Notes: a model not told the origin generated them from the sequence alone. A stretch of 64,000 nucleotides of DNA from Alphaproteobacteria bacterium (GCA_017938435.1 JAGBBO010000006.1:8945-72944); one strand, 5' to 3'; shown: positions 27,820 through 48,285, numbered from the stretch's first letter. Made by a program: numbers and translations.

Positions 27820-30606
27820 ATGCAAAAAAAATACATTCTTGTTGATGGATCTGGTTATATTTTTAGGGCGTTTTATGCTTTACCACCTATTTCCAGAAGT
27901 GACAATTTGCCTGTTGGTGCAGTGTATGGATTTTGCAATATGCTTTTAAAACTTTTGAATGAAAGACATAATCCAAACGAAATTATTGCTGTGATTTTTG
28001 ATAAGGCTAGAAAAAATTTTAGAAATGAAATTTATCCTGAATACAAGGCAAATCGTTCAGAAACTCCGGAAGAACTTATTCCTCAATTTTCATATATAAG
28101 AAAAGCTGTGGAGGCATTCAATATTGCATCTATTGAACAGGCTGGGTTCGAAGCTGATGATTTAATTGCAACTTATGCGACACAAGCCGAAGCAAATGGT
28201 GATAAAGTCGTAATTTATTCATCGGATAAAGATTTAATGCAACTTATGACTCCGAATATTCGTATTCATGATCCACTTAAAAACAAAGATATTGATGAAG
28301 AAACTGTGCTTCAAAAATTCGGTGTTGAACCATCAAAAGTCATTGAAGTTCAAGCCTTAATTGGTGATAGTGTAGATAATATTCCTGGGGTTCGTGGTAT
28401 TGGTCCAAAGACTGCGGCTGAACTTATTCTAAAGTATGGAAGCATTGAAAATTTGATTGAAAATGCAAAAAATATTAAACAGGACAAACGCCGTCAGATG
28501 ATTATTGATGGGGCTGAAAATGCAAAAATTTCGAAACAACTTGCAACACTTAAAAAAGATGTGCCCGTAGAATTTCCATTATCTTCTATTGTAAATTGTC
28601 CCGTTGAAAAAAATAGGATTATGGCATTTTTAGAAGAAATGGAATTTAAATCTTTGGTAACAAAAGCGAATAATTTCATTGATAGTGTAAACAAAATTTT
28701 TGATGAAAATGCTATTATTGTATCAGAAGTTGAACCAGAGAAAAAAGTATTTAAACAAATTGAAAAACATTATGAACTTGTTCGTGATATTCCTACACTT
28801 GAAAAATGGATAAAAGAGTGTGAAAACAAGGGAATATTTGCTGTTGATACAGAAACAACTGGACTTAATAGTTTGGATGCAAAAATTGTAGGTATGAGTA
28901 TTGCAACAGATGAAGGAAAGGCTTGCTATATTCCTATACACCATATAAAAAAAGTATTTGATGGGGCTGATTTATTTAATGATGGTCAGGATGTATTGCA
29001 AGAAAATCAAATTCCAATAGATGAACTTGTTAAACGAATAAAACCTCTGCTTGAAAATCCAAACATAAAAAAAATTGGGCATAATATAAAATATGATATG
29101 CACATTTTTAAACAACTTGGAATAACGGTATATCCAATAGAAGATACTATGGTAATGAGTTATGTATTGGATAGTTCAAAAAATCTTCATAATATGGATG
29201 AACTTGCAAATATACATCTTGGATATACAACAATTCATTATACTGATGTATGTGGAACTGGAAAAGCACAAATTTCATTTTCCGAAGTGCCATTTGATAA
29301 AGCGTTGGATTACGCAGCCGAAGATGCTGATGTAACTTTACGACTTTACAATAATTTTAAGGAAAGAATTGAAAAAGAAAATTGTTCGGAAATTTATTAC
29401 AATATCGATTTACCACTTATTTATAATCTTTTTGAAATGGAAGAATTGGGTGTGTGTGTCGATACAGAAAAACTGATATCGTTAAGTAAAAATTTTGAAG
29501 AAATTTTGACTGGACTTGCAACTGAAATTTACACATTGTCAGGAATGGAATTTAATATACTTTCACCAAAACAACTTGGAGAAGTATTGTTTGAAAAAAT
29601 GGCTATACCCTACCCTGAAAAAAACAAAAAATCTTACTCAACAGATGTGGAAATTTTAAAACAACTTTCGTATCAAGGGTATGAAATTGCAGGTAAAGTT
29701 TTGAAATATCGTGAACTTGCAAAACTTAAAAGCACTTATGCTGATGCCTTAGTAGGACAAGTTTTACCAAGGGATAATCGTGTTCACACAAACTATTTTC
29801 AATGTGGAACATCAACAGGAAGACTTTCATCAAACGATCCAAATCTTCAAAATATTCCTGTGCGTTCCGAACTTGGAAAAGATATTCGCTCAGCATTTGT
29901 GGCAAAGGATGGATATATGCTTTTATCCGCAGATTACTCGCAAATAGAATTGCGACTTATGGCTGCAACTGCACATGTAAAAAATTTGGAAAAAGCTTTC
30001 TTGGATAATGTTGATATTCATACAAGAACTGCATCTCAAATTTTTGGTATTCCTGAAAATGAAATGACTCCGGATATAAGGAGAAAAGCAAAGGCAATAA
30101 ACTTTGGCATCATTTATGGAATATCTGCTTTTGGATTGGCGAAACAACTTGATATTCCTCAAACCGAAGCAAAAGAATATATTGATAATTATTTTAAAAT
30201 ATACCCTGAAATCCTTGATTATATGGAAAAGGCAAAAGCATTCGCTCATGCAAATGGATATGTTGAAACTATTTATGGAAGAAAACTTTTTATTGCAAAT
30301 ATAAATAATCCAAGATTAAAGGCGTATGCTGAACGTGCTGCAATAAATGCTCCGATGCAAGGAACTGGCGCTGAAATATTAAAGAAAGCTATGATTCGAA
30401 TCCGTGAAATTTTAAAGAAACAAAATTTAGAATCAGATGTTCGTATGTTATTACAGGTGCATGATGAACTTGTCTTTGAAGTTAAGGAAGATAAGATTGA
30501 AATCGCAACTAAGATAATAAAAGAAACTATGGAAAACATTGAAAAATTCTCTATTCCTTTGGTTGTAGAAGTTGGTGTTGCCAAAAATTGGACAGATGCA
30601 CATTAA
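27820..30606 (+). CDS. polA: DNA polymerase I (5'-3' exonuclease, 3'-5' exonuclease and polymerase domains)
   Basis: 5'-nuclease N-terminus (ILVDGSGYIFRAFYA), 3'-5' exonuclease (FAVDTETTGLN), polymerase motifs A (LLSADYSQIELR), B (RRKAKAINFGIIYG) and C (QVHDELVFE). Confidence 0.95.
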   Translation: MQKKYILVDGSGYIFRAFYALPPISRSDNLPVGAVYGFCNMLLKLLNERHNPNEIIAVIFDKARKNFRNEIYPEYKANRSETPEELIPQFSYIRKAVEAFNIASIEQAGFEADDLIATYATQAEANGDKVVIYSSDKDLMQLMTPNIRIHDPLKNKDIDEETVLQKFGVEPSKVIEVQALIGDSVDNIPGVRGIGPKTAAELILKYGSIENLIENAKNIKQDKRRQMIIDGAENAKISKQLATLKKDVPVEFPLSSIVNCPVEKNRIMAFLEEMEFKSLVTKANNFIDSVNKIFDENAIIVSEVEPEKKVFKQIEKHYELVRDIPTLEKWIKECENKGIFAVDTETTGLNSLDAKIVGMSIATDEGKACYIPIHHIKKVFDGADLFNDGQDVLQENQIPIDELVKRIKPLLENPNIKKIGHNIKYDMHIFKQLGITVYPIEDTMVMSYVLDSSKNLHNMDELANIHLGYTTIHYTDVCGTGKAQISFSEVPFDKALDYAAEDADVTLRLYNNFKERIEKENCSEIYYNIDLPLIYNLFEMEELGVCVDTEKLISLSKNFEEILTGLATEIYTLSGMEFNILSPKQLGEVLFEKMAIPYPEKNKKSYSTDVEILKQLSYQGYEIAGKVLKYRELAKLKSTYADALVGQVLPRDNRVHTNYFQCGTSTGRLSSNDPNLQNIPVRSELGKDIRSAFVAKDGYMLLSADYSQIELRLMAATAHVKNLEKAFLDNVDIHTRTASQIFGIPENEMTPDIRRKAKAINFGIIYGISAFGLAKQLDIPQTEAKEYIDNYFKIYPEILDYMEKAKAFAHANGYVETIYGRKLFIANINNPRLKAYAERAAINAPMQGTGAEILKKAMIRIREILKKQNLESDVRMLLQVHDELVFEVKEDKIEIATKIIKETMENIEKFSIPLVVEVGVAKNWTDAH

Positions 30607-30680
30607 AAAAATATAAAAAAAACTTTACAAATTTTTTTCTGTTTGATATCATACTGGTGTTGAGAAATTGGGGGGGCGCT

Positions 30681-31085
30681 ATGAATATCTTTCGAAATAT
30701 TTTTATTTTAGTATTCGCTGTTTTGTGGTCTTCTGTTTCTTATTCGGCTGATAGAGCTGCGATTGAATCTGCATTATCTAAATACTGTATAGGTTGTAGA
30801 GTAAATGCCGATGATGAACAGGTTCCAGTCTATACTCCAAGTAAGACAGATAAGCCAACAATGTGTGGTTGTGATACATCTTCTGGATATGTTTATAATA
30901 CAACAAAGAGAATCTGTAAACTTTGTGAAAACGGATCTGTTGCGACTACATTTGCTGTGGATTGCCAACCTATTGTTTGCCCAAGAGGAACTTATAGAGC
31001 GGAGGTTGCAAAATGGAATCAAAATTGCCCAAGAGGTTCATATCAAGGAATTTTAATAAATCAAAATACAACATATATTAAATAG
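30681..31085 (+). CDS. Secreted cysteine-rich protein with GCC2/GCC3 (ephrin-receptor-like) CxxCPxG[ST]Y repeats. Start placed at ATG 30681, after the G7 ribosome-binding site
   Basis: Signal peptide MNIFRNIFILVFAVLWSSVSYSA. Repeats CQPIVCPRGTY and CPRGSY, plus CGCDTSSGYVY. G7 run at 30670-30676, 4 nt before the ATG. Confidence 0.6.
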   Translation: MNIFRNIFILVFAVLWSSVSYSADRAAIESALSKYCIGCRVNADDEQVPVYTPSKTDKPTMCGCDTSSGYVYNTTKRICKLCENGSVATTFAVDCQPIVCPRGTYRAEVAKWNQNCPRGSYQGILINQNTTYIK

Positions 31086-31096
31086 TGGGGTTCATT

Positions 31097-31849
31097 ATGA
31101 AGATAAAATTACTTAAATTGTTAGATAAAATTTTAAAAATGTTTGCATTTATTGGATTGTTTTCTTTTAAAACATCAACTAATGCTCAAACTGCATATCA
31201 ATGTTTACCATGTCCAGAAGGATATACGACTTCGTCTGCTGGTGCGACTTCTAGTTCTAGTTGTGTTCCTGTTAGACAAGCAACTGGCGATTTTGTGAAG
31301 ACTTGCACTAATGCAAATTGCACAGGAACGCTTACAAGGGGTTGGTATAGAATCACTTTGAATACAGCAAATGGTTCTGCTGGTGCTGGTGTTGCTGCTG
31401 TTGGAAATAGTAAAAGTTGTTGTCATACATACAATAATACTTGTATGGCATACAACGAAGTTGCTGGTTGTGTAGCAAGAAATGGTGGTGCTGGTGGTAA
31501 AGGATTAACAAAATCTTATGTGATTTATTTGTCAGAAACTGCTTCTTATTCTTACACATACAATAGTGGTGCGCCAAAGATTGTTATTTCAAATAGCAAG
31601 GATGGAACAAGGACTTTCCAACTTTCTGCTGCGGGAAATGGAACAAACGCATCAAGATCATCGAAATCGGTATCTAACTCTTCAACATATCCTGCTTGCA
31701 CTAAAACTACTTGGACAAGTGCTGCTGGAACAAATGGAGCTGCTTCGACTGTTAGAATCGAAAGTGGTTTGATTGGAAGAGATGCTTCTAGTTCTGCTAT
31801 TGATGGAACAACATCTGGAACTGGTGTAAAAATTACAAAACTTTCTTAA
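31097..31849 (+). CDS. Secreted Ser/Thr/Gly/Ala-rich protein with an N-terminal CxxCPxGY cysteine motif. Start at ATG 31097, after a GGGG ribosome-binding site
   Basis: Signal peptide MKIKLLKLLDKILKMFAFIGLFSF...A. Motif YQCLPCPEGYTTSS...CVP. Low-complexity S/T/G/A/N-rich body. 11 nt after the upstream gene. Confidence 0.55.
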   Translation: MKIKLLKLLDKILKMFAFIGLFSFKTSTNAQTAYQCLPCPEGYTTSSAGATSSSSCVPVRQATGDFVKTCTNANCTGTLTRGWYRITLNTANGSAGAGVAAVGNSKSCCHTYNNTCMAYNEVAGCVARNGGAGGKGLTKSYVIYLSETASYSYTYNSGAPKIVISNSKDGTRTFQLSAAGNGTNASRSSKSVSNSSTYPACTKTTWTSAAGTNGAASTVRIESGLIGRDASSSAIDGTTSGTGVKITKLS

Positions 31850-31958
31850 TATAAAAATTAAACTAAAAAATGAAAAAGAAAGTATTATTTACTTTCTTTT
31901 TTTATTTTGCTATGGTAAAATTTGTAAATAAAATTATGAAGGTTAGGAAAATTTATAA

Positions 31959-32318
31959 ATGGCAAAAGAAAATGAAGAAATGATTATAATTCCAGTTGGC
32001 CTTAATTATGGAAAATGTATTACCTATGATGATTTACAAGAAGCTGGTTTTTATAACACTTTGTCCGATATTGATGAGCATATGCGTGATTGTTTGAAAC
32101 GTGCCGATGAGATAAAGGACGCTATTGAAATGGCTGAAAAGGAACGCTATTTTTCCGTATCTGATAGAAATAAGGATTACACTGGTTTGGAATTAAAGTT
32201 CGAAAAATTAAGAAATGAACTCGCTTCGTTTCATGATTTTATTATGCAATTTGGCGATAATGAAGTATGGAATTCTGTTGTAAGAAATTTTCCTGATGAA
32301 AATAAGGGTGAAAAATGA
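31959..32318 (+). CDS. Hypothetical protein, 119 aa, acidic. Its stop overlaps the start of the downstream glycosyltransferase (ATGA)
   Basis: ORF with a 4-nt overlap to the GT2+GT8 gene. No family recognised. Confidence 0.4.
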   Translation: MAKENEEMIIIPVGLNYGKCITYDDLQEAGFYNTLSDIDEHMRDCLKRADEIKDAIEMAEKERYFSVSDRNKDYTGLELKFEKLRNELASFHDFIMQFGDNEVWNSVVRNFPDENKGEK

Positions 32319-34162
32319 AAGATTTAATTTCTGTTATTGTTTTGGTTTATAACCGTGAAAAAGTTGTTGGACGATGTTTGGAACACCTTATCAATCAGTC
32401 ATACAAAAATCTTGAAATTATTTGTGTAAATGATGGTTCAAAGGATAAATCTTTAGAAATTTTACAAGAGTATGCAAAAAAAGATAGTCGTATAAAAATA
32501 ATAAACAATCCTAAAAATATGGGCATTGCTTATTCTCGAAATGCTGGTCTTGATGCTGCAACTGCGGAATACATTATGTGGTGTGATAGTGATGATTGGT
32601 ATGATAGGCATATGTGCAAAACAATGCTTAAAGCCATTACACAAAATAATGTAGATTATGCTGAATGTCCTGCAAAAATTGTATATGAAAATGAAAATCT
32701 TGGCGTTAGAAAAAATTGGAATCAACAACGTGATTGGGAGTTAAGGTGGACTGGTAAAAAGAAGGTTGATTTGGCTGTTTGCAGACATACTGGCTGTTTT
32801 TTATGGAATAAAATTTTCAAAAAATCATTTATAAATAAGTATGGTTTAAGAATTCCAAATATCAACACTCATGAAGATACTATTTTCGTGTCTATTTATA
32901 TTATGCTTTCAAAAAATGCGTATCTTGTGAAGGAAAAACTTTACTATTATGTAATTCATTCTGGTTCGACTATTGATAAAGTATATGAAGAAAAACGAGG
33001 ATTTACTGAGTTTGAAGAAGTTGAATATTTTTCAAAGTGGGCTGGTGGATTTATTAAGGAACATGGACTTACACAAATATATCCTATGTATAATGAACTG
33101 TTATATACAAAGATATTTAATTTTCTACTGAATGCAAGCATACTTACAAATAATATTCAAATAATCTTAGGTAAAAAACTTGAAGATTTAAAAAAAAAAT
33201 TTGAACAGTTGAACGAAATTGAAGTAAAAGCTCTTTTAAAAAAAGAGGATGAAATCAAGTTACAAAAGATAGCAGAAAGAAATAAAATTATAGAAAAAGA
33301 AAATAAAATTCGAGAAGTTAAATTCGAACCTATGGATATATTTTTTACTGCTGATGATAAGTATGCTGAACATTTGGCAACTACTTTGGTTTCGATACTT
33401 TTGAATGCAAATTATTCTGATGAATTTAATTTTCATATTTTAGATGGTGGCATTTCGTGGCTAAACAAACGAAAAATCCTTAAACTAAAAAATATAAAAT
33501 CATGTAATATTGAATTTTTAAAAGTTGATACAAGTCTTTTTAAAAATTTTCCATTGGAAATTTCTTATATGTCCCTTGCAACATATTATAAATACCTTAT
33601 TCCAAGAATAAAAAGAAAAATCAAACGTGCACTTTATTTGGATTGCGATTTGATTGTAAGGGATTCACTTCATAATTTTTATTATCAAGATTTTAAAAAC
33701 AAGGCGGTTGTTGTTTGCGATGATGCGTATTGGGATTCTGATTTTGCGAAAAAATATAAAATCAAAAATTATTTCAATGCTGGTGTTATGTTGATTGATT
33801 GCGTTAAATGGCGTGCAAAAAAGTATATTGATGAACTTTTTAAACAAACAAAACTTTTGAAAGATGATATAAAACACGAAGATCAAGATGTGTTAAATTA
33901 TGTCCTTAAAAATGACAAGTTATTGGAAAGCCAAAGATATAATCTTCAAGTATATTCATCTATTACTCATAAATTCAAAGGATTGAAAAAAGATACAATA
34001 CTTTCCATTACTGCAAATCCTGCGATTGTGCATTATAATACAAAAGAAAAGCCATGGACTGGACATTCAATACACCCTTACACTATGGAATATTTTATTT
34101 ACAAAAATAAAACCCCGTTTAAAAACAGGGTTAAGAAAGATTTAGAAAAAGTCATTGGATAA
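32315..34162 (+). CDS. Bifunctional glycosyltransferase: N-terminal GT2 plus C-terminal GT8, joined by a coiled-coil linker
   Basis: GT2: SVIVLVYN...CVNDGSKD...YIMWCDSDD. GT8: LDCDLIV (DxD), YFNAGVMLID, DQDVLN, VHYNTKEKPW. Paralog of 16139-17860. Confidence 0.8.
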   Translation: MKDLISVIVLVYNREKVVGRCLEHLINQSYKNLEIICVNDGSKDKSLEILQEYAKKDSRIKIINNPKNMGIAYSRNAGLDAATAEYIMWCDSDDWYDRHMCKTMLKAITQNNVDYAECPAKIVYENENLGVRKNWNQQRDWELRWTGKKKVDLAVCRHTGCFLWNKIFKKSFINKYGLRIPNINTHEDTIFVSIYIMLSKNAYLVKEKLYYYVIHSGSTIDKVYEEKRGFTEFEEVEYFSKWAGGFIKEHGLTQIYPMYNELLYTKIFNFLLNASILTNNIQIILGKKLEDLKKKFEQLNEIEVKALLKKEDEIKLQKIAERNKIIEKENKIREVKFEPMDIFFTADDKYAEHLATTLVSILLNANYSDEFNFHILDGGISWLNKRKILKLKNIKSCNIEFLKVDTSLFKNFPLEISYMSLATYYKYLIPRIKRKIKRALYLDCDLIVRDSLHNFYYQDFKNKAVVVCDDAYWDSDFAKKYKIKNYFNAGVMLIDCVKWRAKKYIDELFKQTKLLKDDIKHEDQDVLNYVLKNDKLLESQRYNLQVYSSITHKFKGLKKDTILSITANPAIVHYNTKEKPWTGHSIHPYTMEYFIYKNKTPFKNRVKKDLEKVIG

Positions 34163-34181
34163 AACTTTTCACTTAAAATTT

Positions 34182-35138
34182 CTATTTTGTAAATTTAATA
34201 TATGAGAAATCAGACACAGGATCCAATTCTATTTCATCCCCATCCGAATCTTTTTTTACTTTTGTATTATTTTCATACCAATTATCAAATTCTTCTTGAA
34301 TCATCTCGTCATCACCATCATATGAGAAAGTTGCATATATACCATTTAATCCACTTGGACAATAAGAAGCTCCATTATCAACATAAAAATAATACTTATC
34401 TAAATCTGATTTTAATATAGATTTATTTCCCAAATAATATTCCTCATTTGCTGATACATCTTTACAGAAATGACCACCATCATTTGGATTATCACCATCA
34501 GGTTCAAAATCATATACATATTTAGGGCTATTTTTAAATTTATTGATAATATCACTTTTAACAGAATTATTGTTACCATTTGCACGAATTTGAGCATTGG
34601 CAATAGCTTTTTGAACATTCATATCATTCATTTGATTTTCTGTTATCAATTTCATTCCACAATCGCTATACCTAAACGAAAAAGAAACATAATCTTTCAT
34701 TTTACTGAGATTTATTAAATCTGATAACTTATAAAAATTTCCTTCTTTTAATATTGTAGTTTTATTTTTAAATATATTTCCAAAAATTATATTATCAGAG
34801 AAACTCATAAAACCATTATCACAAACGGGAATATCTTCTATAAAAATATTCGAGTTAGTATCAGGACAATTACATGAAACACGAGAAGTATTTTCAGAAG
34901 AAATTGAAGTATTAGTTATTGGTTTTCTTGAAACGCTTTTAGCACTTGCCCTTTTACTTGACCTTGTCACAGAAACATTAGCTTTCTGACTTGAACCGGA
35001 CCTTTTACTTGATTTTGTTGAAGACGATGTTGCATTTTTTGAACTTGCAGAACGCAAGCCTTTTTTTGAAGATTTTTGAGTTTTTGCCAGCGAGTTTTCA
35101 CCCAATATAACAACAGATACAACTATCGCTGAAAGCAA
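34182..35138 (-). CDS. Secreted protein with a Ser/Lys/Thr-rich low-complexity N-terminal region and a Cys-containing C-terminal domain. Probable TTG start
   Basis: Signal-peptide-like N-terminus (LLSAIVVSVVILGENSLA). About 70 aa of S/K/T/R low complexity. Ribosome-binding site AGGGA upstream of TTG. In-frame TAG immediately upstream. Confidence 0.5.
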   Translation of the reverse strand: MLSAIVVSVVILGENSLAKTQKSSKKGLRSASSKNATSSSTKSSKRSGSSQKANVSVTRSSKRASAKSVSRKPITNTSISSENTSRVSCNCPDTNSNIFIEDIPVCDNGFMSFSDNIIFGNIFKNKTTILKEGNFYKLSDLINLSKMKDYVSFSFRYSDCGMKLITENQMNDMNVQKAIANAQIRANGNNNSVKSDIINKFKNSPKYVYDFEPDGDNPNDGGHFCKDVSANEEYYLGNKSILKSDLDKYYFYVDNGASYCPSGLNGIYATFSYDGDDEMIQEEFDNWYENNTKVKKDSDGDEIELDPVSDFSYIKFTK

Positions 35139-35275
35139 GATTTTCCCTAGGTTTGAAGGGATTTGCCCCCCTATTCGTCTATTTTATCTAATCATATTTT
35201 CTTCTTTTTTATCGTGTCTAAGATAAACCTATATTTTTTATATTTTAGGAATACATACAAGAAAAATATAATTTT

Positions 35276-35305
35276 TGTTGAAATTTAGATTTTTAGGAGT
35301 ATAAT
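35276..35305 (+). promoter_or_regulatory. Sigma-70-like promoter for the tRNA-Arg gene (-35 TTGAAA, 18-nt spacer, -10 TATAAT)
   Basis: Consensus hexamers read directly, 24 nt upstream of the mature tRNA 5' end. Confidence 0.5.
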
Positions 35306-35329
35306 TCCCTTTGTATTTCATTTCAGATT

Positions 35330-35406
35330 GCGCCGTTAGCTCAATTGGATAGAGTATCTGACTACGGATCAGAAGGTTAGAGGTTCGACTCCCCTACGGC
35401 GCACCA
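35330..35406 (+). tRNA. tRNA-Arg (anticodon ACG), CCA encoded
   Basis: 7-bp acceptor stem GCGCCGT/ACGGCGC, D-arm AGCTCAATTGGATAGAGT, anticodon stem-loop tctga-CTACGGA-tcaga, T-arm AGAGGTTCGACTCCCCT, discriminator A plus CCA. Confidence 0.9.
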
Positions 35407-35751
35407 CTTTACATAATCCTTACTTTTTAGCATAGCATCGAACGGTTTAGTTATTGATAATACTAACTTTTTTGAATCCAATAAAGAGTTCGGAATTAAA
35501 ATTTGTAAAATTTCCTTTTTTAAAGAAAAATCCGAACCAATAAAATATTTACCAATATTGTTTGCAAAATCTACGACTCCATTAACTATTTGATTTATCT
35601 CGCCATTCACAATGTCATAAGATACAAGCTTTTGAGTCTATCGGTAATACAAACCTTGATTTACAATTTTCAACGAAAGATTATTTTCACTTGAAAGTAG
35701 TTTTTATAGAAAGTAAAATATCTGTATATGAAATAAAAAAGAGAGGTAAAA

Positions 35752-36462
35752 ATGAAAAAAATAATATTTACATTGTTCATTTTAATTATATCATTTACTG
35801 CAATAGCAAAGGAATACAATGAAAACGAAACTAAGGATTGTTCCAAAAATTCAGTTCTTATGTTTTGCGATTTAAATGGAAATACCATTACAGGATTTAT
35901 AAAAAAATATTACAAAAATAGCAATTTAAAAGGAGAAATTCCTCTTAAGGATGGTAAAATTGATGGTATAGGTAAATTATATTACGAAAACGGAAATTTA
36001 GAAAAAGAAATGAATTATAAAAATGGTAAACGTGAAGGTTCAACCAAAACATATTATGAAAATGGGAACTTAGAACAAGAAATAAATTATAAAGATGATA
36101 AACCTGAAGGTTTACTTAAGATGTATTCTGAAAATGGAAACTTAGAACAAGAAATAAATTATAAAGATGGTAAAATGAATTTGAACAAAGAATATTTTGA
36201 TAATGGAAATTTAAAGGTAGAAATAAATTATAAAGATGACAAAATTACATCATCCAAAATGTATTTTGAAGGAGGAAGTTTAAGGTTAGAGATGAATCAT
36301 GAAGGTTTAAAAACATATTATTGGAATGGAGATCTAGAACAAGAAGTTTATTTTAAAGATGGTAAAGCTATATCAGGATATATGTATGATGTTTCTGGAA
36401 AAAAGATAGAAATGACCAATGCTCATTTACACAATATGATGAAAAATATAAAAATAAATTAG
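35752..36462 (+). CDS. Secreted MORN-variant (MORN_2 / YwqK-like) repeat protein
   Basis: Signal peptide MKKIIFTLFILIISFTAIA. At least 6 repeats of YYENGNLEqEiNYKDGKxEG. Confidence 0.7.
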   Translation: MKKIIFTLFILIISFTAIAKEYNENETKDCSKNSVLMFCDLNGNTITGFIKKYYKNSNLKGEIPLKDGKIDGIGKLYYENGNLEKEMNYKNGKREGSTKTYYENGNLEQEINYKDDKPEGLLKMYSENGNLEQEINYKDGKMNLNKEYFDNGNLKVEINYKDDKITSSKMYFEGGSLRLEMNHEGLKTYYWNGDLEQEVYFKDGKAISGYMYDVSGKKIEMTNAHLHNMMKNIKIN

Positions 36463-36682
36463 GTTTTTGTAACTAAATCATGCTTAAAATTCTTTTCGTA
36501 TGCTTGGGTAATATTTGTCAGTCGTCTATGGTGCAGTTTGTGTTTCGACATATGGTGGACAGTTAAACTTTTGTTCTTCATACTCATCTTGAAAATGTTT
36601 TATCTTTCTATACAAAGATAGTAATTCTTGCCAATTATTAGCTCGGAAATCACGTAAAATCGTGCACCATTTCATAAAATTG

Positions 36683-38134
36683 TTATTTTTCGCTTGATGG
36701 TGGGATTGTTGGAGGAGTATCATTTCTCCACTTTACATGGTGTTTGCAATAATATATTTCATATTTATTTCTTAATAAGGCAACCAAATTAAATGGTTCT
36801 GTTTTTACTTGTATATCAAGTTGTTGACCTTTTTTAACTTTAATTTTATATAAAAAATTAAAATCTTTTGATACACAAAGTGTGCGCCGTAAAACATCTT
36901 GGCCATTAACTTTTATTTTAGAAAAATAAGAATTATTCCCAAAGGTATTAAACACACATGTCACAAAGCCATCATCTTCAATCTTTAATTTTATTTCTGC
37001 ATTTTTTAAAAAACCTAAAAGTTCGACACCTTCACCATATTCTGTTCTAAGCCAAGATTGGTTTCGTGAAAATTTAACGCCAGAACATTCCTTTATTTCA
37101 ATTTTATTGTGTTTATTAAAAGAATCAGTCAAATCATTTGCACATAAAACAGCAACCTGAGCTTTATCTATTTTTATATCGCCTATACCTATTTTATTTA
37201 ACATATATTTATTATATCTTTTTCCAAAATTTTGGCTTGCGAGAAAATAGTAAATAGCCCTTTGACAATGATATTTTAAATATTCCACCCCATCCTTTGA
37301 AAGGTTATGCTTTTTTGCATAAAATTGTAAAAATTTAAAAATAATAAACAAACAATTTACAATATTTTTAACATTCTTACTTACACTATTTGGGGTATCG
37401 TGATTTTGCAATAATGGTTTGAAAATCATTGAAAATTTAAGACCTTTATGCAAAAGAATTTGGAACAAAAATAATGTATCATCAGGACCATTTAGTTTTG
37501 TAAAAAATCTTAAATGCAAATTATCAATTACTGATTTTTTTATTGCTAAATTCCAAATAACACCTTCGGTTTCATAAAGATCGAAATTTTTTCCATCAGA
37601 AACAAATCTTTCACCATAAGTAGTAGGAAGAGTCACAATCATCAGATTTTCTGTAAAATCACGTCTATATTGAAATACCTCATTTTCAAAAGATAAAAAA
37701 TGGTAATTTGTTTTCTTTATCGCATCTTTTATATATTCAAACATTACGATATCAGAATCATCTTCTATAATACGACCATAAACTGTGCTACAAGTATCAG
37801 GCATATATTCATCATCACTATCAAGAAACATTATATATTTTCCAGTAGCATACTGCATACCAGTATTTCTTGCCTTTGCAACACCACCATTTTCTTGATG
37901 AATAACCTTTATTCTATCATCTTTTCTTGCAAATTCATAAAGAACTTCTAAAGAATTATCCTTGGATCCATCATCAACGCAAATTATTTCTATATCACGA
38001 AATATTTGTGCGCGTAAACTTTGAATACTTCTATCAACAAGTTTACCTCTGTTATAGACTGGCATAATAATGGAAAAAATGGCATCTAAAATCCCCGTGT
38101 TACAATTAAATATAATTCCGATTAAAGATAACAA
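36683..38134 (-). CDS. Glycosyltransferase family 2 protein (GT-A fold) with an extended C-terminal domain
   Basis: IIMPVYNRGKL...CVDDGSKDNS...YIMFLDSDDEY (the GT2 signatures, including DxD). Confidence 0.75.
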   Translation of the reverse strand: MLSLIGIIFNCNTGILDAIFSIIMPVYNRGKLVDRSIQSLRAQIFRDIEIICVDDGSKDNSLEVLYEFARKDDRIKVIHQENGGVAKARNTGMQYATGKYIMFLDSDDEYMPDTCSTVYGRIIEDDSDIVMFEYIKDAIKKTNYHFLSFENEVFQYRRDFTENLMIVTLPTTYGERFVSDGKNFDLYETEGVIWNLAIKKSVIDNLHLRFFTKLNGPDDTLFLFQILLHKGLKFSMIFKPLLQNHDTPNSVSKNVKNIVNCLFIIFKFLQFYAKKHNLSKDGVEYLKYHCQRAIYYFLASQNFGKRYNKYMLNKIGIGDIKIDKAQVAVLCANDLTDSFNKHNKIEIKECSGVKFSRNQSWLRTEYGEGVELLGFLKNAEIKLKIEDDGFVTCVFNTFGNNSYFSKIKVNGQDVLRRTLCVSKDFNFLYKIKVKKGQQLDIQVKTEPFNLVALLRNKYEIYYCKHHVKWRNDTPPTIPPSSEK

Positions 38135-38172: not shown

Positions 38173-38937
38173 TTAAATGCTATCAGATGTTTCCTTGTCT
38201 GCTAAATTCCAAACAAGTTCATAAGATTCCCCCGTTTTCTTATCCTTGCCAAGTTTAAGAGAATTTACAAATTCAGTATGTTCTGCAATTTCTTCGTCGG
38301 TTGCGGGGAAATGACGCGCAGTATGAAATTCACCATGTTCTATTTTCACAGGAGCATCGGTTAGAGAATTGATATGTTCAGAAGCATCTTGTTGTTTAAA
38401 GAAATCAACCTCTTTTCCACCAAGAAGTTCGATATAAACCTCAGCAAGAAGTCGAGCATCAAGTAAAGCACCATGCAAATCACGGTTAGAATTATCAATT
38501 CCATAACGAACACAAAGTGCATCCAAACTATGTCTTGCAAGATGAGGATTTTTCTTTCGCGAAATGGCAAGGGTATCAACCATTCTGTCCCATGAAACCT
38601 CAGGCATATCAAGACGGCGAAATTCGGCATTTATAAAGTTAATATCAAACACTGCATTGTGGGCAACCAGCTTTGCATCGCCGATAAATTTCACAAAATC
38701 ATCGGCAATTTCAGCAAATGTTGGCTTATCAGATAAAAATTCAGTCGTTAACCCGTGGACCTTTACAACAGCCTCTGGAACTTCGCGTTCAGGATTTATA
38801 TAGCGGTGAAAAGTTTTACCGGTTGGGGTATGATTTATCATTTCAATACATCCAACTTCGACAAGTCGGTCATCGCCAGAGTAATTAAACCCTGTTGTTT
38901 CGGTATCAAATACTATTTCTCTTAAACTTTCTGCCAT
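38173..38937 (-). CDS. dnaQ: DNA polymerase III epsilon subunit (3'-5' proofreading exonuclease)
   Basis: Exo I IVFDTETTG, Exo II VAHNAVFD, Exo III HGALLDA. Confidence 0.85.
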   Translation of the reverse strand: MAESLREIVFDTETTGFNYSGDDRLVEVGCIEMINHTPTGKTFHRYINPEREVPEAVVKVHGLTTEFLSDKPTFAEIADDFVKFIGDAKLVAHNAVFDINFINAEFRRLDMPEVSWDRMVDTLAISRKKNPHLARHSLDALCVRYGIDNSNRDLHGALLDARLLAEVYIELLGGKEVDFFKQQDASEHINSLTDAPVKIEHGEFHTARHFPATDEEIAEHTEFVNSLKLGKDKKTGESYELVWNLADKETSDSI

Positions 38938-39854: not shown

Positions 39855-39890
39855 AAAAAAAGCACTTTAAATAGTGCTTTTATTTTTTCC
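39855..39890. terminator. Bidirectional terminator (aaagcact-ttaaat-agtgcttt + T-run) between convergent xseB and virD4
   Basis: Perfect 8-bp stem with flanking A- and T-runs. Confidence 0.7.
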
Positions 39891-41985
39891 TTAACCAATC
39901 AGGCACAGCCGGTGCAGGTGGAATTTGTGATTTTGCAAGAAGTTTTGGATCCTTGTAATACCTTGGGCTTTCTGCCTCAATAGGGTATCGAGGATAACCT
40001 TGCATAATAACGATTTGTTTTTCCGGAGAAAGTGACATAATTTTACTTGTGCTATATAATGACTTTTTTCCAACGTTAATATCAAAATCTCGTTTAAATG
40101 CATTAAGATTGGTTCCGTTTTTATATTTTGTTTCAGCAAAATTCATATCACCCATAATCTTTGAAAAACGAGCTGCTGTATTTTCATTATTTTGTGTAAG
40201 CAAAATTTTTGCCGCAGTTGTTGACATCAAGGTTTCAACATGTTCACGACCATATCCTGCCTCTATCTGACCCAAATCCTGGGCAATTAAAAGATATGAA
40301 ACTTTTTGACCACGACCAACCGCAGGTCCATCAATAACGGCATTTAATTTTGGCATTTGAGGAAACTCGTCAAGTACAAAAAGTGTAGGACATGGTCCGG
40401 CTTTAACTCCACCACCTAAATCTTTTCCTGGTGGTGTAGAAATAAGATAATTTGACATCAATTCAACAAAAACACCAGTAATAACATTTAATGCACGGGC
40501 ATCTGTTTGATTTACTGATAAATAAATAGTCACAGGTTTCATTTTACCATCAGTTGGATCAACCATACCACGCAAATCTTTGAAAGAAAAATCACTATGT
40601 GAAGTTCTTTGGCGGACGGCTTGGTTTTTAAAAATACCAATACCAGTTAAACCAGTGGAAAGAATAGATCCTCGTTCCTTATCTGGCGTATTGGCAAGTT
40701 GTGTCATTTCCAAAACAGCACGATGAGAATATCCATAACGACGCGCTTCCATAACTGCATTTTCAAGCATTTCTTTCATAGGATCAGCAAGTGCAGCCAT
40801 TTGATCGCCCTGCTCCTTTCGTTGTCTTATATCCTCAGAAATATGGACCTGAGCTTCACTCATCCAATCAAGAAGCATTGGAATATTTGCTTCGTGTCCG
40901 ACCCATTCCTTTGGAATATCAGCCCATGTTCCAACAGGAACATAATTATCTTTATTTATTTTTCCCTCACGAAGAAGTGTTAATGCACCCATTGCATAAC
41001 TGTCATTCATAGAAAGATAATATTGTTCCAAACTTGCCGCATCACGCGCATTAAATTCTCCATTAGAAAGTCGTGTATAAAAATAATCACTAGCAGTTGC
41101 GCGTTCACATTTGGAAACTATGTAATGCATAAAACCAGAAAGTGCATTTCTACCAGTTTTTGACCAGTGTGGATCAGCCGAAGATCCAGCAGGATCTTGA
41201 ACAAAAACATTAACCATACTATCGATATACATATCCCTATCTGGACCTTGGGGAGGAATGGTGCCTGGTGATAATGGGTTCCATGATGGATAATATTCAC
41301 CCTTTTCAGGATTATCTTCTTTACCCCAATTCATAATAAACACAGGACCAATTTTTGCACGATAACCACTTGTGATATAACAAAGTTCTGGCTTAGGGTC
41401 ATTGACAATCATACTTACCGTATCACATTCAAAAATTGTTGGAATAACTATACCAACAGTTTTACCAGTTCCAGGAGGAGCACACGCAAGAACAGATAAT
41501 GTTTCTCCTAATTTTAAAAAACGCTTTTTAAAACGACCAAGAACTATAATAAATCCATCCCAAACTTTCATTTTTTTCATAATTTTTTCATCAGCATTTT
41601 TTGAATATGCCGCAGGGGTAGATGTGACATCATACGGATTAGAATTATTTATTACCACAAGTGTAGGCGGAATTGCCATAAGTGGAATTGCAGGAATAAT
41701 TGTTGATGTATGCCCACTTACAAAAGCCATAATCCATTCATAATAAGCCCATAAGACATAGAACCCAGCGGTATTAAAAATATTTCTAAAATATCGTTGC
41801 ATTTTTGCAGAATGGAAAACTGCCATATCGAAATCATGATTTACCCAAAAAGAAATTGGAAAAATCATTATCAAAACTCCCCACAAAAGAAGTCCTGATA
41901 TAATATATGCAAACATAAGCCATCGGGCAGCCTTTTGATGTTCGCCTTCATACTTATCTTCAAATACTTTTTTAAGAAATACCAT
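39880..41985 (-). CDS. virD4: Type IV secretion system coupling protein VirD4/TraG family. Start placed at internal ATG MVFLKK...
   Basis: Two N-terminal transmembrane segments, Walker A LACAPPGTGKTVGIVIPTI (compare APTRSGKGVGVVIPT in VirD4), Walker B LFVLDEFPQMPKL. Confidence 0.85.
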   Translation of the reverse strand: MVFLKKVFEDKYEGEHQKAARWLMFAYIISGLLLWGVLIMIFPISFWVNHDFDMAVFHSAKMQRYFRNIFNTAGFYVLWAYYEWIMAFVSGHTSTIIPAIPLMAIPPTLVVINNSNPYDVTSTPAAYSKNADEKIMKKMKVWDGFIIVLGRFKKRFLKLGETLSVLACAPPGTGKTVGIVIPTIFECDTVSMIVNDPKPELCYITSGYRAKIGPVFIMNWGKEDNPEKGEYYPSWNPLSPGTIPPQGPDRDMYIDSMVNVFVQDPAGSSADPHWSKTGRNALSGFMHYIVSKCERATASDYFYTRLSNGEFNARDAASLEQYYLSMNDSYAMGALTLLREGKINKDNYVPVGTWADIPKEWVGHEANIPMLLDWMSEAQVHISEDIRQRKEQGDQMAALADPMKEMLENAVMEARRYGYSHRAVLEMTQLANTPDKERGSILSTGLTGIGIFKNQAVRQRTSHSDFSFKDLRGMVDPTDGKMKPVTIYLSVNQTDARALNVITGVFVELMSNYLISTPPGKDLGGGVKAGPCPTLFVLDEFPQMPKLNAVIDGPAVGRGQKVSYLLIAQDLGQIEAGYGREHVETLMSTTAAKILLTQNNENTAARFSKIMGDMNFAETKYKNGTNLNAFKRDFDINVGKKSLYSTSKIMSLSPEKQIVIMQGYPRYPIEAESPRYYKDPKLLAKSQIPPAPAVPDWLRKK

Positions 41986-42045
41986 TTTCCCTATCCCTAT
42001 AGTAATAGTATAGCACATTTTTTTTATAAGGTAAAGTGGCAAAAT

Positions 42046-43200
42046 CTATTTAATTTGAGAATTTTCTATTTCTATAAATAATGAACTTTTATTTTCAAAA
42101 AACTCAAAATCTGAACGCAAAATTCCAGTCATCCAAACCTGTGTTGGAAGTTTTTCAAGTTCCTTAAACAACTCTAAAGTTTTTATTTCATCAAGATGGG
42201 CCGGAGCTTCGTCAATTAAAATTAACGGATACTTATTAAAATACAAATAAAGCATATTTGCATAAGCAAGAATTATCGAAATAACAGCCAACTTTTGTTC
42301 ACCAGTTGATGTTTGATCAGCAGGCATATTTTTATCCAAATTTATTGCTGAAAAATCGGAACGATGAACTCCTTCTACCGGTGGGGAAAAAGTAAATTTG
42401 AATAATTCCCTATTATCCAACAATGATTTTTTATAGAAATCCTCTACCTCAACGGATTTTAAGGTCTTTAGTTTTTCCTCTATTGCACCATCAATATGGA
42501 TTTGAATTTTTGGGAAGACATTATCCGAAGTCTTTAAAATATTATTAAGTTTTTCTTCGAATTCAATTCTTAATGCCGCAATAGAAACGCCCTTTTCTAC
42601 TATTTCAGACTCAATCGCATCAAGCCATTTTTCATCAACATTGTGTGATTTTAAAACCTTTGCCCTTTGTTTTAAAAGATTTGAATATTGGTTAAGGGAA
42701 ACGCCATAAAATGGATAAAAATTGGATATAAGATTATCAAGAAACTTTCTTCGTTCACCGGTTGCTTCGGAAAAAAGTCTATCCATAAACGGAGTAATCC
42801 AAATAACACGAATATAGTTTTGTAAATCGCCAACGGTTATATTATCATCATTAGCAATAATCTGTCTTTTTTCAACAATATCGTCATCATCAGAAATATT
42901 TTGTTTATCGGTGTAATTATAAGACAAACCAAGATTAAAAACATCATCATCACTTTCTATTTGTGAGGAAATTGTAAAAACAGAAATGTTTGCATTAGTT
43001 TTTCCAAGTTGCGAAAGTTTTGCCTTTCTGAATGGACCAGATTGTGATAGCATGGAAATTGCTTCTAAAATATTTGTCTTTCCAGCACCATTTTCACCAG
43101 TAATAATGATATTTTTTGAAAGATTAGTATCAATTCTTAATTTTTCATAAGAACGATAATTATTCAAAACAAGTCTTTTTATAAAATATGAATTTATCAT
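42046..43200 (-). CDS. recF: DNA replication and repair protein RecF
   Basis: Walker A GENGAGKTNILEAIS, signature region, Walker B LILIDEAPAHLD. 384 aa. Confidence 0.85.
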   Translation of the reverse strand: MINSYFIKRLVLNNYRSYEKLRIDTNLSKNIIITGENGAGKTNILEAISMLSQSGPFRKAKLSQLGKTNANISVFTISSQIESDDDVFNLGLSYNYTDKQNISDDDDIVEKRQIIANDDNITVGDLQNYIRVIWITPFMDRLFSEATGERRKFLDNLISNFYPFYGVSLNQYSNLLKQRAKVLKSHNVDEKWLDAIESEIVEKGVSIAALRIEFEEKLNNILKTSDNVFPKIQIHIDGAIEEKLKTLKSVEVEDFYKKSLLDNRELFKFTFSPPVEGVHRSDFSAINLDKNMPADQTSTGEQKLAVISIILAYANMLYLYFNKYPLILIDEAPAHLDEIKTLELFKELEKLPTQVWMTGILRSDFEFFENKSSLFIEIENSQIK

Positions 43201-45305: not shown

Positions 45306-46400
<1,095 letters not shown>

Positions 46401-46408: not shown

Positions 46409-47044
46409 TTGAGAATGTTGATAATGAAAAAATCCGTTTTGTTTTTGCTTGCACTTAGTGGATGTGTAAGACTTAATTATGTTGATATTCCTGCACAAGA
46501 AAATTCATATAAATTTAGATATGTTGGCGAAAATGCACTTGTAGAATGTGTGGATGAAAAACTTGCTGATCGTATGTGTGAAAAAGATGGAATAACTCCA
46601 GCAAATGGTATTTGGGCACAAGAAATAAGTGGTAAAAAATATGCTGTTAACTATACTTTCTTTTCTGCAGGACTTAAAATTGCTTCGGAACTTTATGATG
46701 AAAATGCTGGTGCTGGAATAAAGGGATATGTTGAGGTTGATGGAAACAGTTATACATATTGTCGTAATGGAAATTTGTGTAATATTAGTTGTAAAGTTTT
46801 TGATGATAAATTTATTTATATAACTGGTGATGCACTTTCTATTTGGGTGAAAGCTAAGGGTGCAGATGCACTTAAGTGTGCATTTATTGAAGGTTATTTA
46901 GAAGGATATTACGGTAAAGATAAAGCAATAAAACTTATATCAAAAAATTCAATGGTGGCAGATGTTTCTTGGGATTTTATTCGTCAACTAGATAAAACAA
47001 AAGGTAATCCGGATAAAAAAATAATTTTCAAAGACAAAGAATAA
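46409..47044 (+). CDS. Hypothetical lipoprotein, 211 aa, 8 Cys
   Basis: Signal peptide plus lipobox LALSGC. 8 nt downstream of ccrM. Confidence 0.5.
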   Translation: MRMLIMKKSVLFLLALSGCVRLNYVDIPAQENSYKFRYVGENALVECVDEKLADRMCEKDGITPANGIWAQEISGKKYAVNYTFFSAGLKIASELYDENAGAGIKGYVEVDGNSYTYCRNGNLCNISCKVFDDKFIYITGDALSIWVKAKGADALKCAFIEGYLEGYYGKDKAIKLISKNSMVADVSWDFIRQLDKTKGNPDKKIIFKDKE

Positions 47045-47169: not shown

Positions 47170-48285
47170 TTATTTAATATTCCATTTAAAAGCACCATCT
47201 TCCTTTAGAATAACGCGTGAACCGTTTATTCCAGAGTCAGTTACTTGCTTTTGAACTTTTTCGGCTTCTTCTTTACTTGTAAATTCGCCAAGACGAACCT
47301 TGTAAAGTGTTTCACCATTTACAACAGATTTGAAAATCTTTACTGTTCCAAATGTTGTAAGTTTATCTTTTAAAGCTTCTGCTTTTTCATATGTTGAATA
47401 TGCAGCAACTTGAACAAAATAATCACTGTTGTGTGCAGAAACAGGTGCAGGTGCTGGTGCTGGCTCTACTGGAGCTGGAGCAGGAGCAGGTGCTGGTGCT
47501 GATTCAGCAACAGGTGCAGGTTCTTGAACCTTTGGTTGTTCAGGTTGAATTTCAGCAGATGAGTAAGTGATATTTGGTTCATAAATATCAGTATTTTGTG
47601 AAGCAATTGCAAGTTCCTTTAAATTCTTACTTTCTTCTGGTAAGATTTCAACACGAACACGAGCTGTGCCTTTTTCTTTAATTCTTAATACTTCAGCAGC
47701 AGCAGATGAAAGGTCAATAATTCTATCCCTTGCATATGGACCACGATCATTTACCTTTAATGTTATACCGATACCATTTTCCAAATTTGTTACACGAACA
47801 AGTGATGGCATAGGAAGTGTTCTGTGTGCAGCAGTAAATTTTGTTTCATCAAAAATTTCACCATTTGCTGTTTTACCACCTGAAAATGATGGACCATACC
47901 ATGATGCCATACCTATTTCACTGTAGTTATAATCTTCGTGTGGGTAATATGAAACACCATCAATTAAATATGGATTTCCAATTTTATATGTTCCCATAGC
48001 AGCAAAATTTGTTTTTGCAACATCACTTGGAGTATTATCAACAACTTGTGGTTGGATTTCAGGAACTGGCTCTGCCATAACAGGAGCCTGTGTTTCCATA
48101 GCACTAACTTCATCAATAATAGATGGTTGATTCATACTTTGAATTTTTGATGGTCCCATTCCACCATTTAAAAGTGCTGTAGAAGTAATAGGTGCAGTTG
48201 TAGAACCTATTGGAACAATATTTTCAGTCATTGCGCAAGATGCCAATAATGCTGATAAAGTTAAAATAGATGTATATTTTCTCAT
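47170..48285 (-). CDS. rlpA: Septal ring lytic transglycosylase RlpA (DPBB domain + Pro/Ala linker + C-terminal SPOR domain), lipoprotein
   Basis: Lipobox LLASCA. DPBB motifs (...GMASWYGPSFSGGKTANGE...TAAHRTLPMPS...). (PA)n linker. SPOR-like C-terminus (YFVQVAAYSTYEKAEALKDKL...). Confidence 0.8.
   Translation of the reverse strand: MRKYTSILTLSALLASCAMTENIVPIGSTTAPITSTALLNGGMGPSKIQSMNQPSIIDEVSAMETQAPVMAEPVPEIQPQVVDNTPSDVAKTNFAAMGTYKIGNPYLIDGVSYYPHEDYNYSEIGMASWYGPSFSGGKTANGEIFDETKFTAAHRTLPMPSLVRVTNLENGIGITLKVNDRGPYARDRIIDLSSAAAEVLRIKEKGTARVRVEILPEESKNLKELAIASQNTDIYEPNITYSSAEIQPEQPKVQEPAPVAESAPAPAPAPAPVEPAPAPAPVSAHNSDYFVQVAAYSTYEKAEALKDKLTTFGTVKIFKSVVNGETLYKVRLGEFTSKEEAEKVQKQVTDSGINGSRVILKEDGAFKWNIK

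Follow-up and report, generated by a model that had tools for sequence, protein, structure and literature searches.

What kind of locus lies between polA and dnaQ in a 64-kb stretch of DNA from an Alphaproteobacteria bacterium (GCA_017938435.1 JAGBBO010000006.1:8945-72944)? The whole stretch of 64,000 nucleotides (nt) is called the window here, and all coordinates refer to it unless a fetched locus is named; L-numbers denote loci fetched from related metagenome-assembled genomes (MAGs) and contigs. A first-pass annotation, made from the sequence of the window, had described the 7.5 kb around a tRNA-Arg gene as a lineage-specific accessory island holding eukaryotic-like secreted proteins and glycosyltransferases that might act on them. 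Our results showed that the stretch is not an acquired island, and that it is not demonstrably eukaryotic-like or a glycoprotein system. The explanation that we hold, with somewhat more confidence than doubt, is a cell-surface diversity locus on a conserved polA/tRNA-Arg(ACG)/dnaQ frame, which consists of a four-gene module (A-D) and the accessory genes E-G. The features of the locus are as follows:

polA, 27820-30606: conserved flank on one side.
A, 30681-31085, plus strand: 134 amino acids (aa), secreted Cys-rich protein; leader ending SYSA, 9 Cys, two CPRG[TS]Y motifs.
B, 31097-31849, plus strand: 250 aa, secreted protein; highly conserved 31-aa leader, one CxxCPxG motif (CLPCPEGYT), predicted all-beta domain.
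C, 31959-32318, plus strand: 119 aa, acidic (isoelectric point, pI, 4.6), cytoplasmic; ATGA overlap with D.
D, 32315-34162, plus strand: 615 aa, bifunctional glycosyltransferase; GT2 at residues 6-170, GT8 at residues 342-582.
E, 34182-35138, minus strand, TTG start: 318 aa, Ser/Lys-rich N-terminal region and a domain of about 220 aa without a family match.
tRNA-Arg, anticodon ACG, 35330-35406, plus strand.
F, 35752-36462, plus strand: 236 aa, secreted MORN_2-repeat protein; signal peptide ending AIA.
G, 36683-38134, minus strand, TTG start at 38134: 483 aa, N-terminal GT2 domain and a C-terminal part of about 320 aa without a family match.
dnaQ, 38173-38937: conserved flank on the other side.

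This layout agreed with the first-pass annotation in most respects. All seven open reading frames (ORFs) were present where it had drawn them, with the start of A moved to 30681 (at 30588 there is an in-frame TTG further upstream), and polA and dnaQ flanked the cluster as it had said. The tRNA-Arg gene was recovered by ARAGORN and was the sole match in the Rfam scan (62.3 bits). The GC content of the genes, from 24% (F) to 37% (B), was indeed like that of the window (31%), and the seven proteins and the small ORFs contained no integrase or transposase domain in Pfam, NCBIfam, PHROGs or PADLOC, again as stated. None of the seven proteins reached an NCBIfam equivalog; PADLOC matched none of the proteins; in PHROGs, A, B, C and F drew no match, and those of G were to generic glycosyltransferases only. 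Among the family assignments, GT2, GT8 and MORN_2 passed their Pfam thresholds, and PF07699 (GCC2/GCC3) fell below threshold for both A and B. The window sequence recurred, identical across the region, in independent assemblies, which excludes a chimera. The remainder of the window consists of housekeeping genes, including alpha-type AddA and CcrM. The nearest PolA relatives were uncultured Alphaproteobacteria MAGs, all from ruminant gut, and relatives of B also came from human (Hadza) gut. Gut and rumen Alphaproteobacteria of this kind are known from metagenomes only, with no prior knowledge of their surfaces.

Comparison with related loci, by tblastn on the fetched sequences and by look-ups of B homologs, showed that the order polA-A-B-C-D was kept in L006, L007 and L084-L091, that is, in at least 10 related gut or rumen MAG loci. 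The tRNA-Arg(ACG) gene lay about 65 nt 3' of D wherever the contig extended far enough, and the same tRNA followed either D or polA in L004, L006, L008, L011, L086-L088, L090 and L091. One locus (L007) carried an additional GT8 gene between C and a GT2 gene. The module was wholly missing at the polA site in L004, L005 and L008-L010; in L004, whose PolA is 89% identical, polA was followed by the tRNA within about 75 nt. In L011 (PolA 53% identical) the order was polA-tRNA-A'-B' without C-D, and the tRNA again lay within about 75 nt of polA. These comparisons split the claim that all the genes are lineage-specific: E, F and G are species- or strain-specific, whereas A-D keep their order and position in at least 10 loci. 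The picture of a variable island centred on the tRNA stood in so far as the region is variable and the tRNA-Arg gene is its pivot (L004, L011 and the dnaQ side), but A-D are not an acquired island. They hold a fixed place 5' of the tRNA in these loci, where divergent alleles appear to have been exchanged, not inserted. The question of whether polA and dnaQ adjoin elsewhere was answered in part: the polA-tRNA and tRNA-dnaQ halves were each seen, but adjacency of polA and dnaQ was found on no single contig.

Within one species, the module was hypervariable. The same-species set comprised L006 and L087-L091, with PolA proteins 98-100% identical and a synonymous divergence (dS) of 0.04-0.21. In this set the amino-acid identity was 72-95% for A, 54-87% for B, 32-91% for C and 66-92% for D. 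The dS between L006 and L087, and the ratio of non-synonymous to synonymous divergence (dN/dS) in same-species pairs, were as follows:

polA: dS 0.11; dN/dS 0.03-0.06.
A: dS 0.38; dN/dS 0.3-0.7 (the near-identical L084-L085 pair, 0.10, left out).
B: dS 0.73; dN/dS 0.3-0.9.
C: dS 1.66; dN/dS 0.17-0.95.
D: dS 0.98; dN/dS 0.16-0.23.

The nucleotide identity between the same two loci, compared in 150-nt sliding steps, rose and fell along the locus:

CCA-adding enzyme gene, era, polA and up to the A leader: 89-100%.
Mature part of A: 40-72%.
B leader: 89%.
Mature part of B, and C: 40-65%.
D, 5' end of the GT2 domain: 84-97%.
D, remainder: 46-79%.
D 3' end and tRNA: 98-99%.
Beyond the tRNA: no similarity.

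This pattern is that of old divergent alleles, apparently swapped between conserved anchors as in O-antigen and capsule loci. The likeness to those clusters lies in the fixed chromosomal place between conserved genes, in alleles far more divergent than the flanks (dS about 1.0-1.7 versus about 0.11) and in the sharp identity breaks at the borders. Unlike those clusters, the locus is 3.5 kb long with one enzyme gene and contains no flippase, polymerase or sugar-nucleotide synthesis genes, and half of the cassette encodes secreted proteins. In addition, L084 and L085 (PolA 99% identical) differed almost only in B (73% identity; C 97%). The assemblies of L084, L085 and L089 end inside or just after B or D, as would be expected from strain heterogeneity at a hypervariable locus.

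The glycosyltransferase of the module is D. Its GT2 domain (PF00535, residues 6-170) scored 135.6 bits (E 2e-39, cut-off 23.3) and its GT8 domain (PF01501, residues 342-582) 137.4 bits (E 8.5e-40, cut-off 24.3), with a DSD motif at residue 91 (WCDSDDWY) and a DCD motif at residue 443. Upstream of it, C counterparts of 118-135 aa overlapped or abutted the next glycosyltransferase gene in L006, L007, L086, L087 and L091, and the C-D overlap was either ATGA or 14 nt. The only invariant motif of C across relatives was IP..LN near the N-terminus, and no family in Pfam or NCBIfam matched C. The pI of C, the ATGA overlap and the Pfam matches of D bear out the earlier description of a small acidic protein coupled to a GT2+GT8 enzyme. 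Among solved structures, the GT8 half (D residues 340-582) was closest to Neisseria LgtC (1ss9, E 3.4e-29) and the GT2 half to Streptococcus parasanguinis GalT1 (5hea, E 1e-27), and a pneumococcal GT8 entry, 5gvv, also matched D (E 7.5e-12). Against the NCBIfam model for lipopolysaccharide 3-alpha-galactosyltransferase, the best score was 89.6 bits (cut-off 461). Since one half is near an enzyme of lipooligosaccharide (LOS) synthesis and the other near GalT1, homology alone cannot choose between a lipid-linked and a protein acceptor.

The LOS loci of Neisseria (lgt, with LgtC), Haemophilus and Campylobacter share with this locus the LgtC-like GT8 enzyme and the variation of glycosyltransferase content and sequence between strains. 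They differ in that D is a GT2-GT8 fusion paired with the coupled C in a module with two secreted proteins, that no heptosyltransferase or core-LOS gene adjoins the locus, and that D has no homopolymer tract and varies by divergent alleles, not by on/off switching.

A second GT2-GT8 protein, of 573 aa and with 31% identity to D, is encoded in the window at 16139-17860 (plus strand), within a conserved cell-wall neighbourhood that also occurs in L005. It is directly preceded by a glucosaminidase-domain gene (15106-16119, plus strand), and mreC, mreD, PBP2 and rodA genes adjoin. The glucosaminidase and GT2-GT8 pair also occurred in L005 (2993-5758), with orthologs only 53% identical though PolA is 88% identical.

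The similarity of D to GalT1 bears on a different explanation, in which the 7.5 kb are an island acquired at tRNA-Arg and the GT-A enzymes D and G glycosylate the secreted proteins A, B and E before or during export, as in serine-rich repeat adhesin or HMW1-type systems. It would account for the matches of D to 5hea and 5gvv, both of which we take to act on serine-rich repeat adhesins, for the Ser+Thr content of B (27%) and of the N-terminal region of E (42%), for the A-B-C-D order kept in at least 10 loci and for the variability at a tRNA gene. However, A-D lie fixed 5' of the tRNA in many relatives, with no integrase, atypical GC or att-length repeat, and the leaders of A, B and F are ordinary Sec-type. 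No accessory Sec system, GtfA/B pair or oligosaccharyltransferase was found in the locus or the annotated part of the window, and the GT8 half fits LgtC far better than 5gvv (3e-29 versus 7.5e-12). L011 has A'-B' without any glycosyltransferase, and E is not a serine-rich repeat protein, with about 75 low-complexity residues and no long repeats. Compared directly with serine-rich repeat adhesin glycosylation, the locus shares a GT2 half nearest GalT1, a match to 5gvv and Ser-rich secreted proteins encoded nearby, but SecA2/Y2, GtfA/B and a long SxSx repeat protein are missing here and the organism is a Gram-negative-type alphaproteobacterium, as indicated by the alpha-type AddA and CcrM of the window and by an ORF adjoining polA in L010, read by eye as KdsB without a family search. 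We regard a glycoprotein island as quite unlikely. The functional link between glycosyltransferases and secreted proteins, as first proposed, has conserved gene order as its one support and is weakened by L011 and by the stand-alone GT2-GT8 paralogs. Conserved linkage would favour a connection of D to A and B, and the separate occurrence of A'-B' and of GT2-GT8 argues that each half may work alone.

The secreted proteins A and B form the other half of the module. Two elements were found at the 5' side of A:

Promoter-like site, 30624-30652, plus strand: between polA and A; TTTACA, 17 nt, TG-TATCAT, a consensus match.
G7 run, 30670-30676, plus strand: 4 nt 5' of the A ATG, likely the Shine-Dalgarno region.

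The promoter-like site matched 10 of 12 consensus positions and had an extended -10 TG, and an element of the 'ctttaca...tatatt' type also lay upstream of A in L006, L084 and L086. The G7 run is one of just two G/C runs of at least 6 in the 64-kb window, the other being in the leader of E. Relatives had G3-G5 in the same place, and no length variation of the run was seen among four contigs of the species (the window and L001-L003). The run could tune the translation of A via the strength or spacing of the Shine-Dalgarno sequence.

Both proteins had been described as carrying CxxCPxG[ST]Y repeats of eukaryotic type. The CPxG[ST]Y units of A and the CxxCPxG unit of B do resemble Ephrin_rec_like/GCC2_GCC3 (PF07699), and A contains two CPRG[TS]Y motifs, but B has the single CLPCPEGYT and no repeats. 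The matches to PF07699 were below the gathering score of 23.1 bits for both A (17.0 bits) and B (20.1 bits), and there was no sign of eukaryotic origin. At E <0.01 the family was matched by 2 of 11 A-family members and by 2 of 28 B-family members, all sub-threshold except one paralog in L011; one more relative (P0095) carries a precomputed PF07699 match. The A family had 49 relatives among 5.8 billion proteins, with a number of CPxGxY units that differs between relatives. The B family was very small: a set of 5.8 billion proteins yielded 30 clusters and one of 1.84 billion 25 representatives. The term eukaryotic-like is therefore weak, with sub-threshold scores and few, short, bacterial-type relatives. 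A eukaryotic origin of A and B was rejected because the exhaustive profile searches returned only about 25-50 relatives, all short, and every context examined was the same bacterial neighbourhood. The L011 paralog of A (20223-21050 of that locus, 264-275 aa) has Ephrin_rec_like repeats that pass at 32.3 bits and a long Ser-rich, Cys-rich tail, and about 7 kb separate it from the A'-B' pair.

The AlphaFold2 (AF2) model of A, built from 46 sequences, had a mean predicted local distance difference test score (pLDDT) of 54.6, too poor for fold comparison. The model of B (28 sequences) averaged 78.8, ten-residue blocks within residues 71-190 scored 85-95, and most segments were predicted to be beta-strands. 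The leader was the best conserved part of B. The mature protein (10 Cys, 11% Gly, 27% Ser+Thr in B as a whole) showed conserved strands (L.PGWYRVT, GGAGG.G...YVIYL, YTYNSGAP.LVI and ITRL), and between them hypervariable Cys-bearing loops with indels and varying Cys counts. With moderate confidence, the predicted beta-domain of B resembles the receptor-binding glycine-rich/TNF-like domain of phage tail fibres and ALK. Such domains form a single receptor-binding class with a conserved stem and a hypervariable tip (PMC9608196; PMC13243192), and Pam3 gp24 has a conserved scaffold with hypervariable loops (PMC9608196). The same division into conserved scaffold and hypervariable loops relates B to the domains of phage Pam3 gp24, Bxb1 gp33 and gp29, S16 gp38 and ALK/LTK (PF21722). 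B differs from them as a free 220-aa Sec-exported cellular protein outside any virion, with 11% Gly, 10 Cys and an N-terminal CxxCPxG, and with non-significant results in Pfam and PDB sequence searches. Foldseek and sequence profiles did not confirm this fold assignment. Foldseek of the B model returned nothing at E <=0.001 from the PDB or BFVD. Pfam gave no Gly_rich_2 (PF21722) match for the B of the window, and the B-family profile found nothing among PDB sequences. A distant B relative in L011, with 20% Gly, scored 18.5 bits for Gly_rich_2 (cut-off 24.3), and sub-threshold matches were obtained in 1 of 28 close and 1 of 18 distant relatives. No match to B or E was found by tblastn in 50,697 phage records.

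B is separated from C by a gap of 109 nt, in which the following element was found:

AT-rich hairpin with a U-run, 31867-31907, plus strand: after the B stop, inverted repeat I8, a possible terminator or attenuator between A-B and C-D.

The hairpin folds at -15.5 kcal/mol, with a z-score of -3.7 against shuffles, and A-B and C-D may therefore be two transcription units. This arrangement matters for the idea that the locus encodes a polymorphic secreted toxin or bacteriocin, with A and/or B as exported effectors, C as the immunity protein and D as an unrelated neighbour. Leaders far better conserved than the mature parts, a small and very fast-evolving cytoplasmic gene directly after B, alleles that differ among strains of one species, and defence genes at the tRNA flank in relatives would all suit such a locus. 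However, no toxin or immunity family was matched in Pfam, NCBIfam, PADLOC or PHROGs, and C is coupled to D (ATGA or 14-nt overlap), not to B, from which the gap and the hairpin divide it. The 73% identity of B beside 97% for C in L084 and L085 is not the co-variation of a toxin with its immunity protein, and the predicted fold of B would point to binding, not to enzymatic or pore-forming activity. A toxin locus is highly improbable in our judgement.

Besides the module, the accessory genes E and G contain homopolymer tracts at their 5' ends. Both had been annotated as open frames, and these are present, but in this strain the likely original ATG of E is disabled and G has its ATG out of frame. 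The 5' end of E is as follows:

E 5' leader, extending to 35195, minus strand: upstream ATG at 35195, TAA at codon 4 and a G6 run (C6 on the plus strand, 35166-35171).

Residues 19-95 of E contain 42% Ser+Thr and 22% Lys+Arg, which fits its first description as Ser/Lys-rich, and E had no homologs in Pfam, the PDB or the phage collections. The TTG start is in frame, 5 nt after the Shine-Dalgarno-like sequence AGGGAAAA. The G tract lies at codons 9-10 of the ATG frame. In L094 it is G8 and in frame, giving a full signal peptide (MIGQNRRIGGGKSLVNLGKLLLSAV...), and in L092 it is G9 and out of frame; in the window and four other contigs, G6 together with a 1-nt deletion is in frame, yet TAA stands at codon 4. 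A role of the poly-G run in linking an upstream ATG of another frame to E was considered and rejected for the window, where stops occur in all three frames between the ATG and the tract, so that only the comparison with L092 and L094 is informative on this tract. G is a further GT2 enzyme, as annotated (PF00535, E 1e-40, 139.6 bits, residues 21-164, cut-off 23.3), with DSD at residue 105 (FLDSDDEY). With the T6 run that the window carries near 38074-38079, the ATG at 38085 is out of frame and only the TTG at 38134 starts an open frame; in L092 a T7 run brings the ATG into frame and gives MPFFSIIMPVYN. Like LOS loci, the locus has frame-shifting 5' homopolymer tracts, in E and in the separate GT2 gene G, comparable to those of the phase-variable lgt genes.

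The contig L092, from the Joint Genome Institute (JGI), is of the same species as the window, with 98.4-98.9% DNA identity and the order dnaQ-G-tRNA-E-D-C-B. The 16.4-kb same-species alignment contained eight small indels, and every frame-changing intragenic one was at the 5' tract of E or G. The dN/dS between the window and L092 was 0.25 for E (5 synonymous and 5 non-synonymous changes) and 0.33 for G, both from small counts. E and G thus still look constrained, which fits contingency genes. On an opposing view, a rearrangement junction has left E, F and G behind to decay, and the tract differences stem from ordinary inactivating mutations or from errors of assembly. In its favour, the same 1.3 kb holds two gene remnants, neither strain keeps the ATG frame of E intact (a nonsense codon breaks it in the window and a frameshift in L092), G has its ATG out of frame in the window, and synteny past the tRNA is broken in most relatives. 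This view is nevertheless rather unlikely: E and G stay open over 318 and 483 codons in 28% GC sequence, with the TTG of E after AGGGAAAA, and their dN/dS values, though from small counts, are below the neutral 1.0. The only two G/C runs of at least 6 in 64 kb are at the starts of A and E, and all frame-changing intragenic indels in the 16.4 kb are at the two 5' tracts.

Taken as a surface diversity locus, the region would work as follows. A-B and C-D form a fixed-position module, in which C may be an acidic cytoplasmic partner translationally coupled to D. Whole or partial cassettes would be swapped by homologous recombination at the conserved anchors, namely the signal-peptide regions, the 5' end of GT2 and the tRNA, and phages or host immunity would maintain the variants through diversifying or frequency-dependent selection. 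A and B would be exported, exposed binding proteins, with B binding its ligand via the variable loops, and D would add two sugars to a surface glycan, most likely lipooligosaccharide. E and G would be switched by slipped-strand phase variation, or may be in the course of being lost.

Several observations weigh against this explanation. The two halves of the module occur apart, with A'-B' without C-D in L011 and GT2-GT8 without A-B in L005 and at 16139-17860 of the window; each half may thus function without the other. The signal peptides were identified by eye, and both the surface exposure of A and B and the acceptor of D were deduced from sequence. The high dS values are near saturation and depend partly on alignments of very divergent sequence, and dN/dS was below 1 for every gene, so that positive selection is inferred only. 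The sampled alleles fall into just two groups in one species, and in the window's own species the two strains carry one shared allele. The tract lengths come from metagenome assemblies with 2-3 sequences per site, where error is possible, and they could equally mark decay.

A bolder version of the surface-locus explanation would make A, B and D one co-diversifying 'lock and key' surface system of a kind not described before, in which D builds a strain-specific outer-membrane glycan and B together with A docks on it or on a host or protist ligand. B would then be a cellular descendant of a phage-fibre/ALK-type receptor-binding domain, and whole cassettes would therefore have to be exchanged together. 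We consider this very doubtful; if true, gut Alphaproteobacteria would possess, at one fixed place in the chromosome, a compact serotype cassette of protein plus glycan.

A hypervariable surface locus with contingency-type genes is a familiar theme, and its components here belong to uncharacterised families from a gut lineage not yet cultured. The general principle behind such loci and genes is well established, and the practical value of a further example is moderate. The locus is where strains of one species differ most and offers a natural strain-typing marker, and it is a candidate determinant of phage susceptibility or host recognition. The locus also contributes two orphan families of secreted proteins that are confined to this lineage; one probably has a receptor-binding fold known mainly from phage fibres and ALK-type receptors. 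The B family may serve as a compact system for studying the evolution of scaffold-plus-hypervariable-loop binders in cells.

On the dnaQ side of the tRNA, the window contained an accessory segment with the following features:

Strain-variable segment, 35417-36663, 1,247 bp: F and two gene remnants; missing in L092.
77-aa ORF, 35377-35610, minus strand: overlaps the tRNA 3' end, likely a remnant of a longer gene.
Remnant of a phosphatase-like gene, within 36463-36700, plus strand: 27 codons, 74% identical to the N-terminus of an intact 156-aa gene in L008 (15824-16294).

In a blastn comparison, position 35416 of the window was joined to 36664 in L092. At the L092 junction, GCGCACCA at the tRNA 3' end (35399-35406) was set against GTGCACCA at 36664-36671, an imperfect 8-nt repeat that bounds the F segment; the same pattern fits a microhomology deletion in L092. 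The repeat search found no repeats of at least 14 nt involving the tRNA and no att-length duplicate of it. L092 has probably lost the segment, because L088 and L008 also carry the tRNA-adjacent sequence next to their tRNA. The 77-aa ORF shared 71% identity with part of a 152-aa tRNA-side gene in L088 and 79-84% with the corresponding position in L008, and it had no family match in PHROGs or PADLOC. The phosphatase-like remnant, from a CxxxxxRS motif recognised by eye, looks like a low-molecular-weight protein-tyrosine phosphatase. F was confirmed as the MORN-repeat secreted protein first described (MORN_2, PF07661, E 5.7e-27, 91 bits versus 29.6, 4 scored stretches). It contains six DNA repeat units of 72 nt (24 aa; repeat family D1), and it was present in the window and L001-L003 and missing in L092.

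Empty sites occurred among relatives, with F missing in L092, G missing in L093 and polA adjoining the tRNA in L004 and L011. In L093 (DnaQ 81% identical), dnaQ lay about 70 nt from the tRNA with neither G nor F, and in L094 the distance was about 1.1 kb and an E-like gene followed the tRNA. The 3' flank of tRNA-Arg(ACG) carried cargo in L006 (16945-22543), L087 (12915-16759), L090 (11178-16735), L088 (12035-12621) and L008 (14144-22670). This unrelated cargo comprised type I restriction-modification genes, bPH_2, PLDc_2 and a resolvase. The L008 flank held unannotated ORFs by the low-molecular-weight phosphatase-like gene, with lysozyme-like and nucleotidyltransferase-like proteins recognised by eye. 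The tRNA 3' flank behaves as a hotspot of defence and mobile genes across the lineage.

Elsewhere in the window, 473 bp at 46413-46885, within an ORF at 46409-47044 (plus strand) just after the CcrM gene (45312-46400), were missing in L092. The synteny with L094 breaks at about 46409 and resumes at 62877-63980 of the window, which looks like another indel or rearrangement junction. An RlpA-family gene (47170-48285, minus strand), encoding a lytic transglycosylase lipoprotein, showed two in-frame 6-nt length differences from L092, at 47450 and 47499, which represent repeat-number variation of the GGTGCT type. A gene for a VirD4/TraG-type coupling protein of a type IV secretion system (E 9e-53) adjoins one for an SMC_N/AAA protein (39880-42042 and 42046-43200, both minus strand); a YmdB-like phosphoesterase gene lies beside it, and no other genes of such a secretion system were nearby. 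The VirD4/TraG-type gene was 97% identical in L092, with a dN/dS of 0.22.

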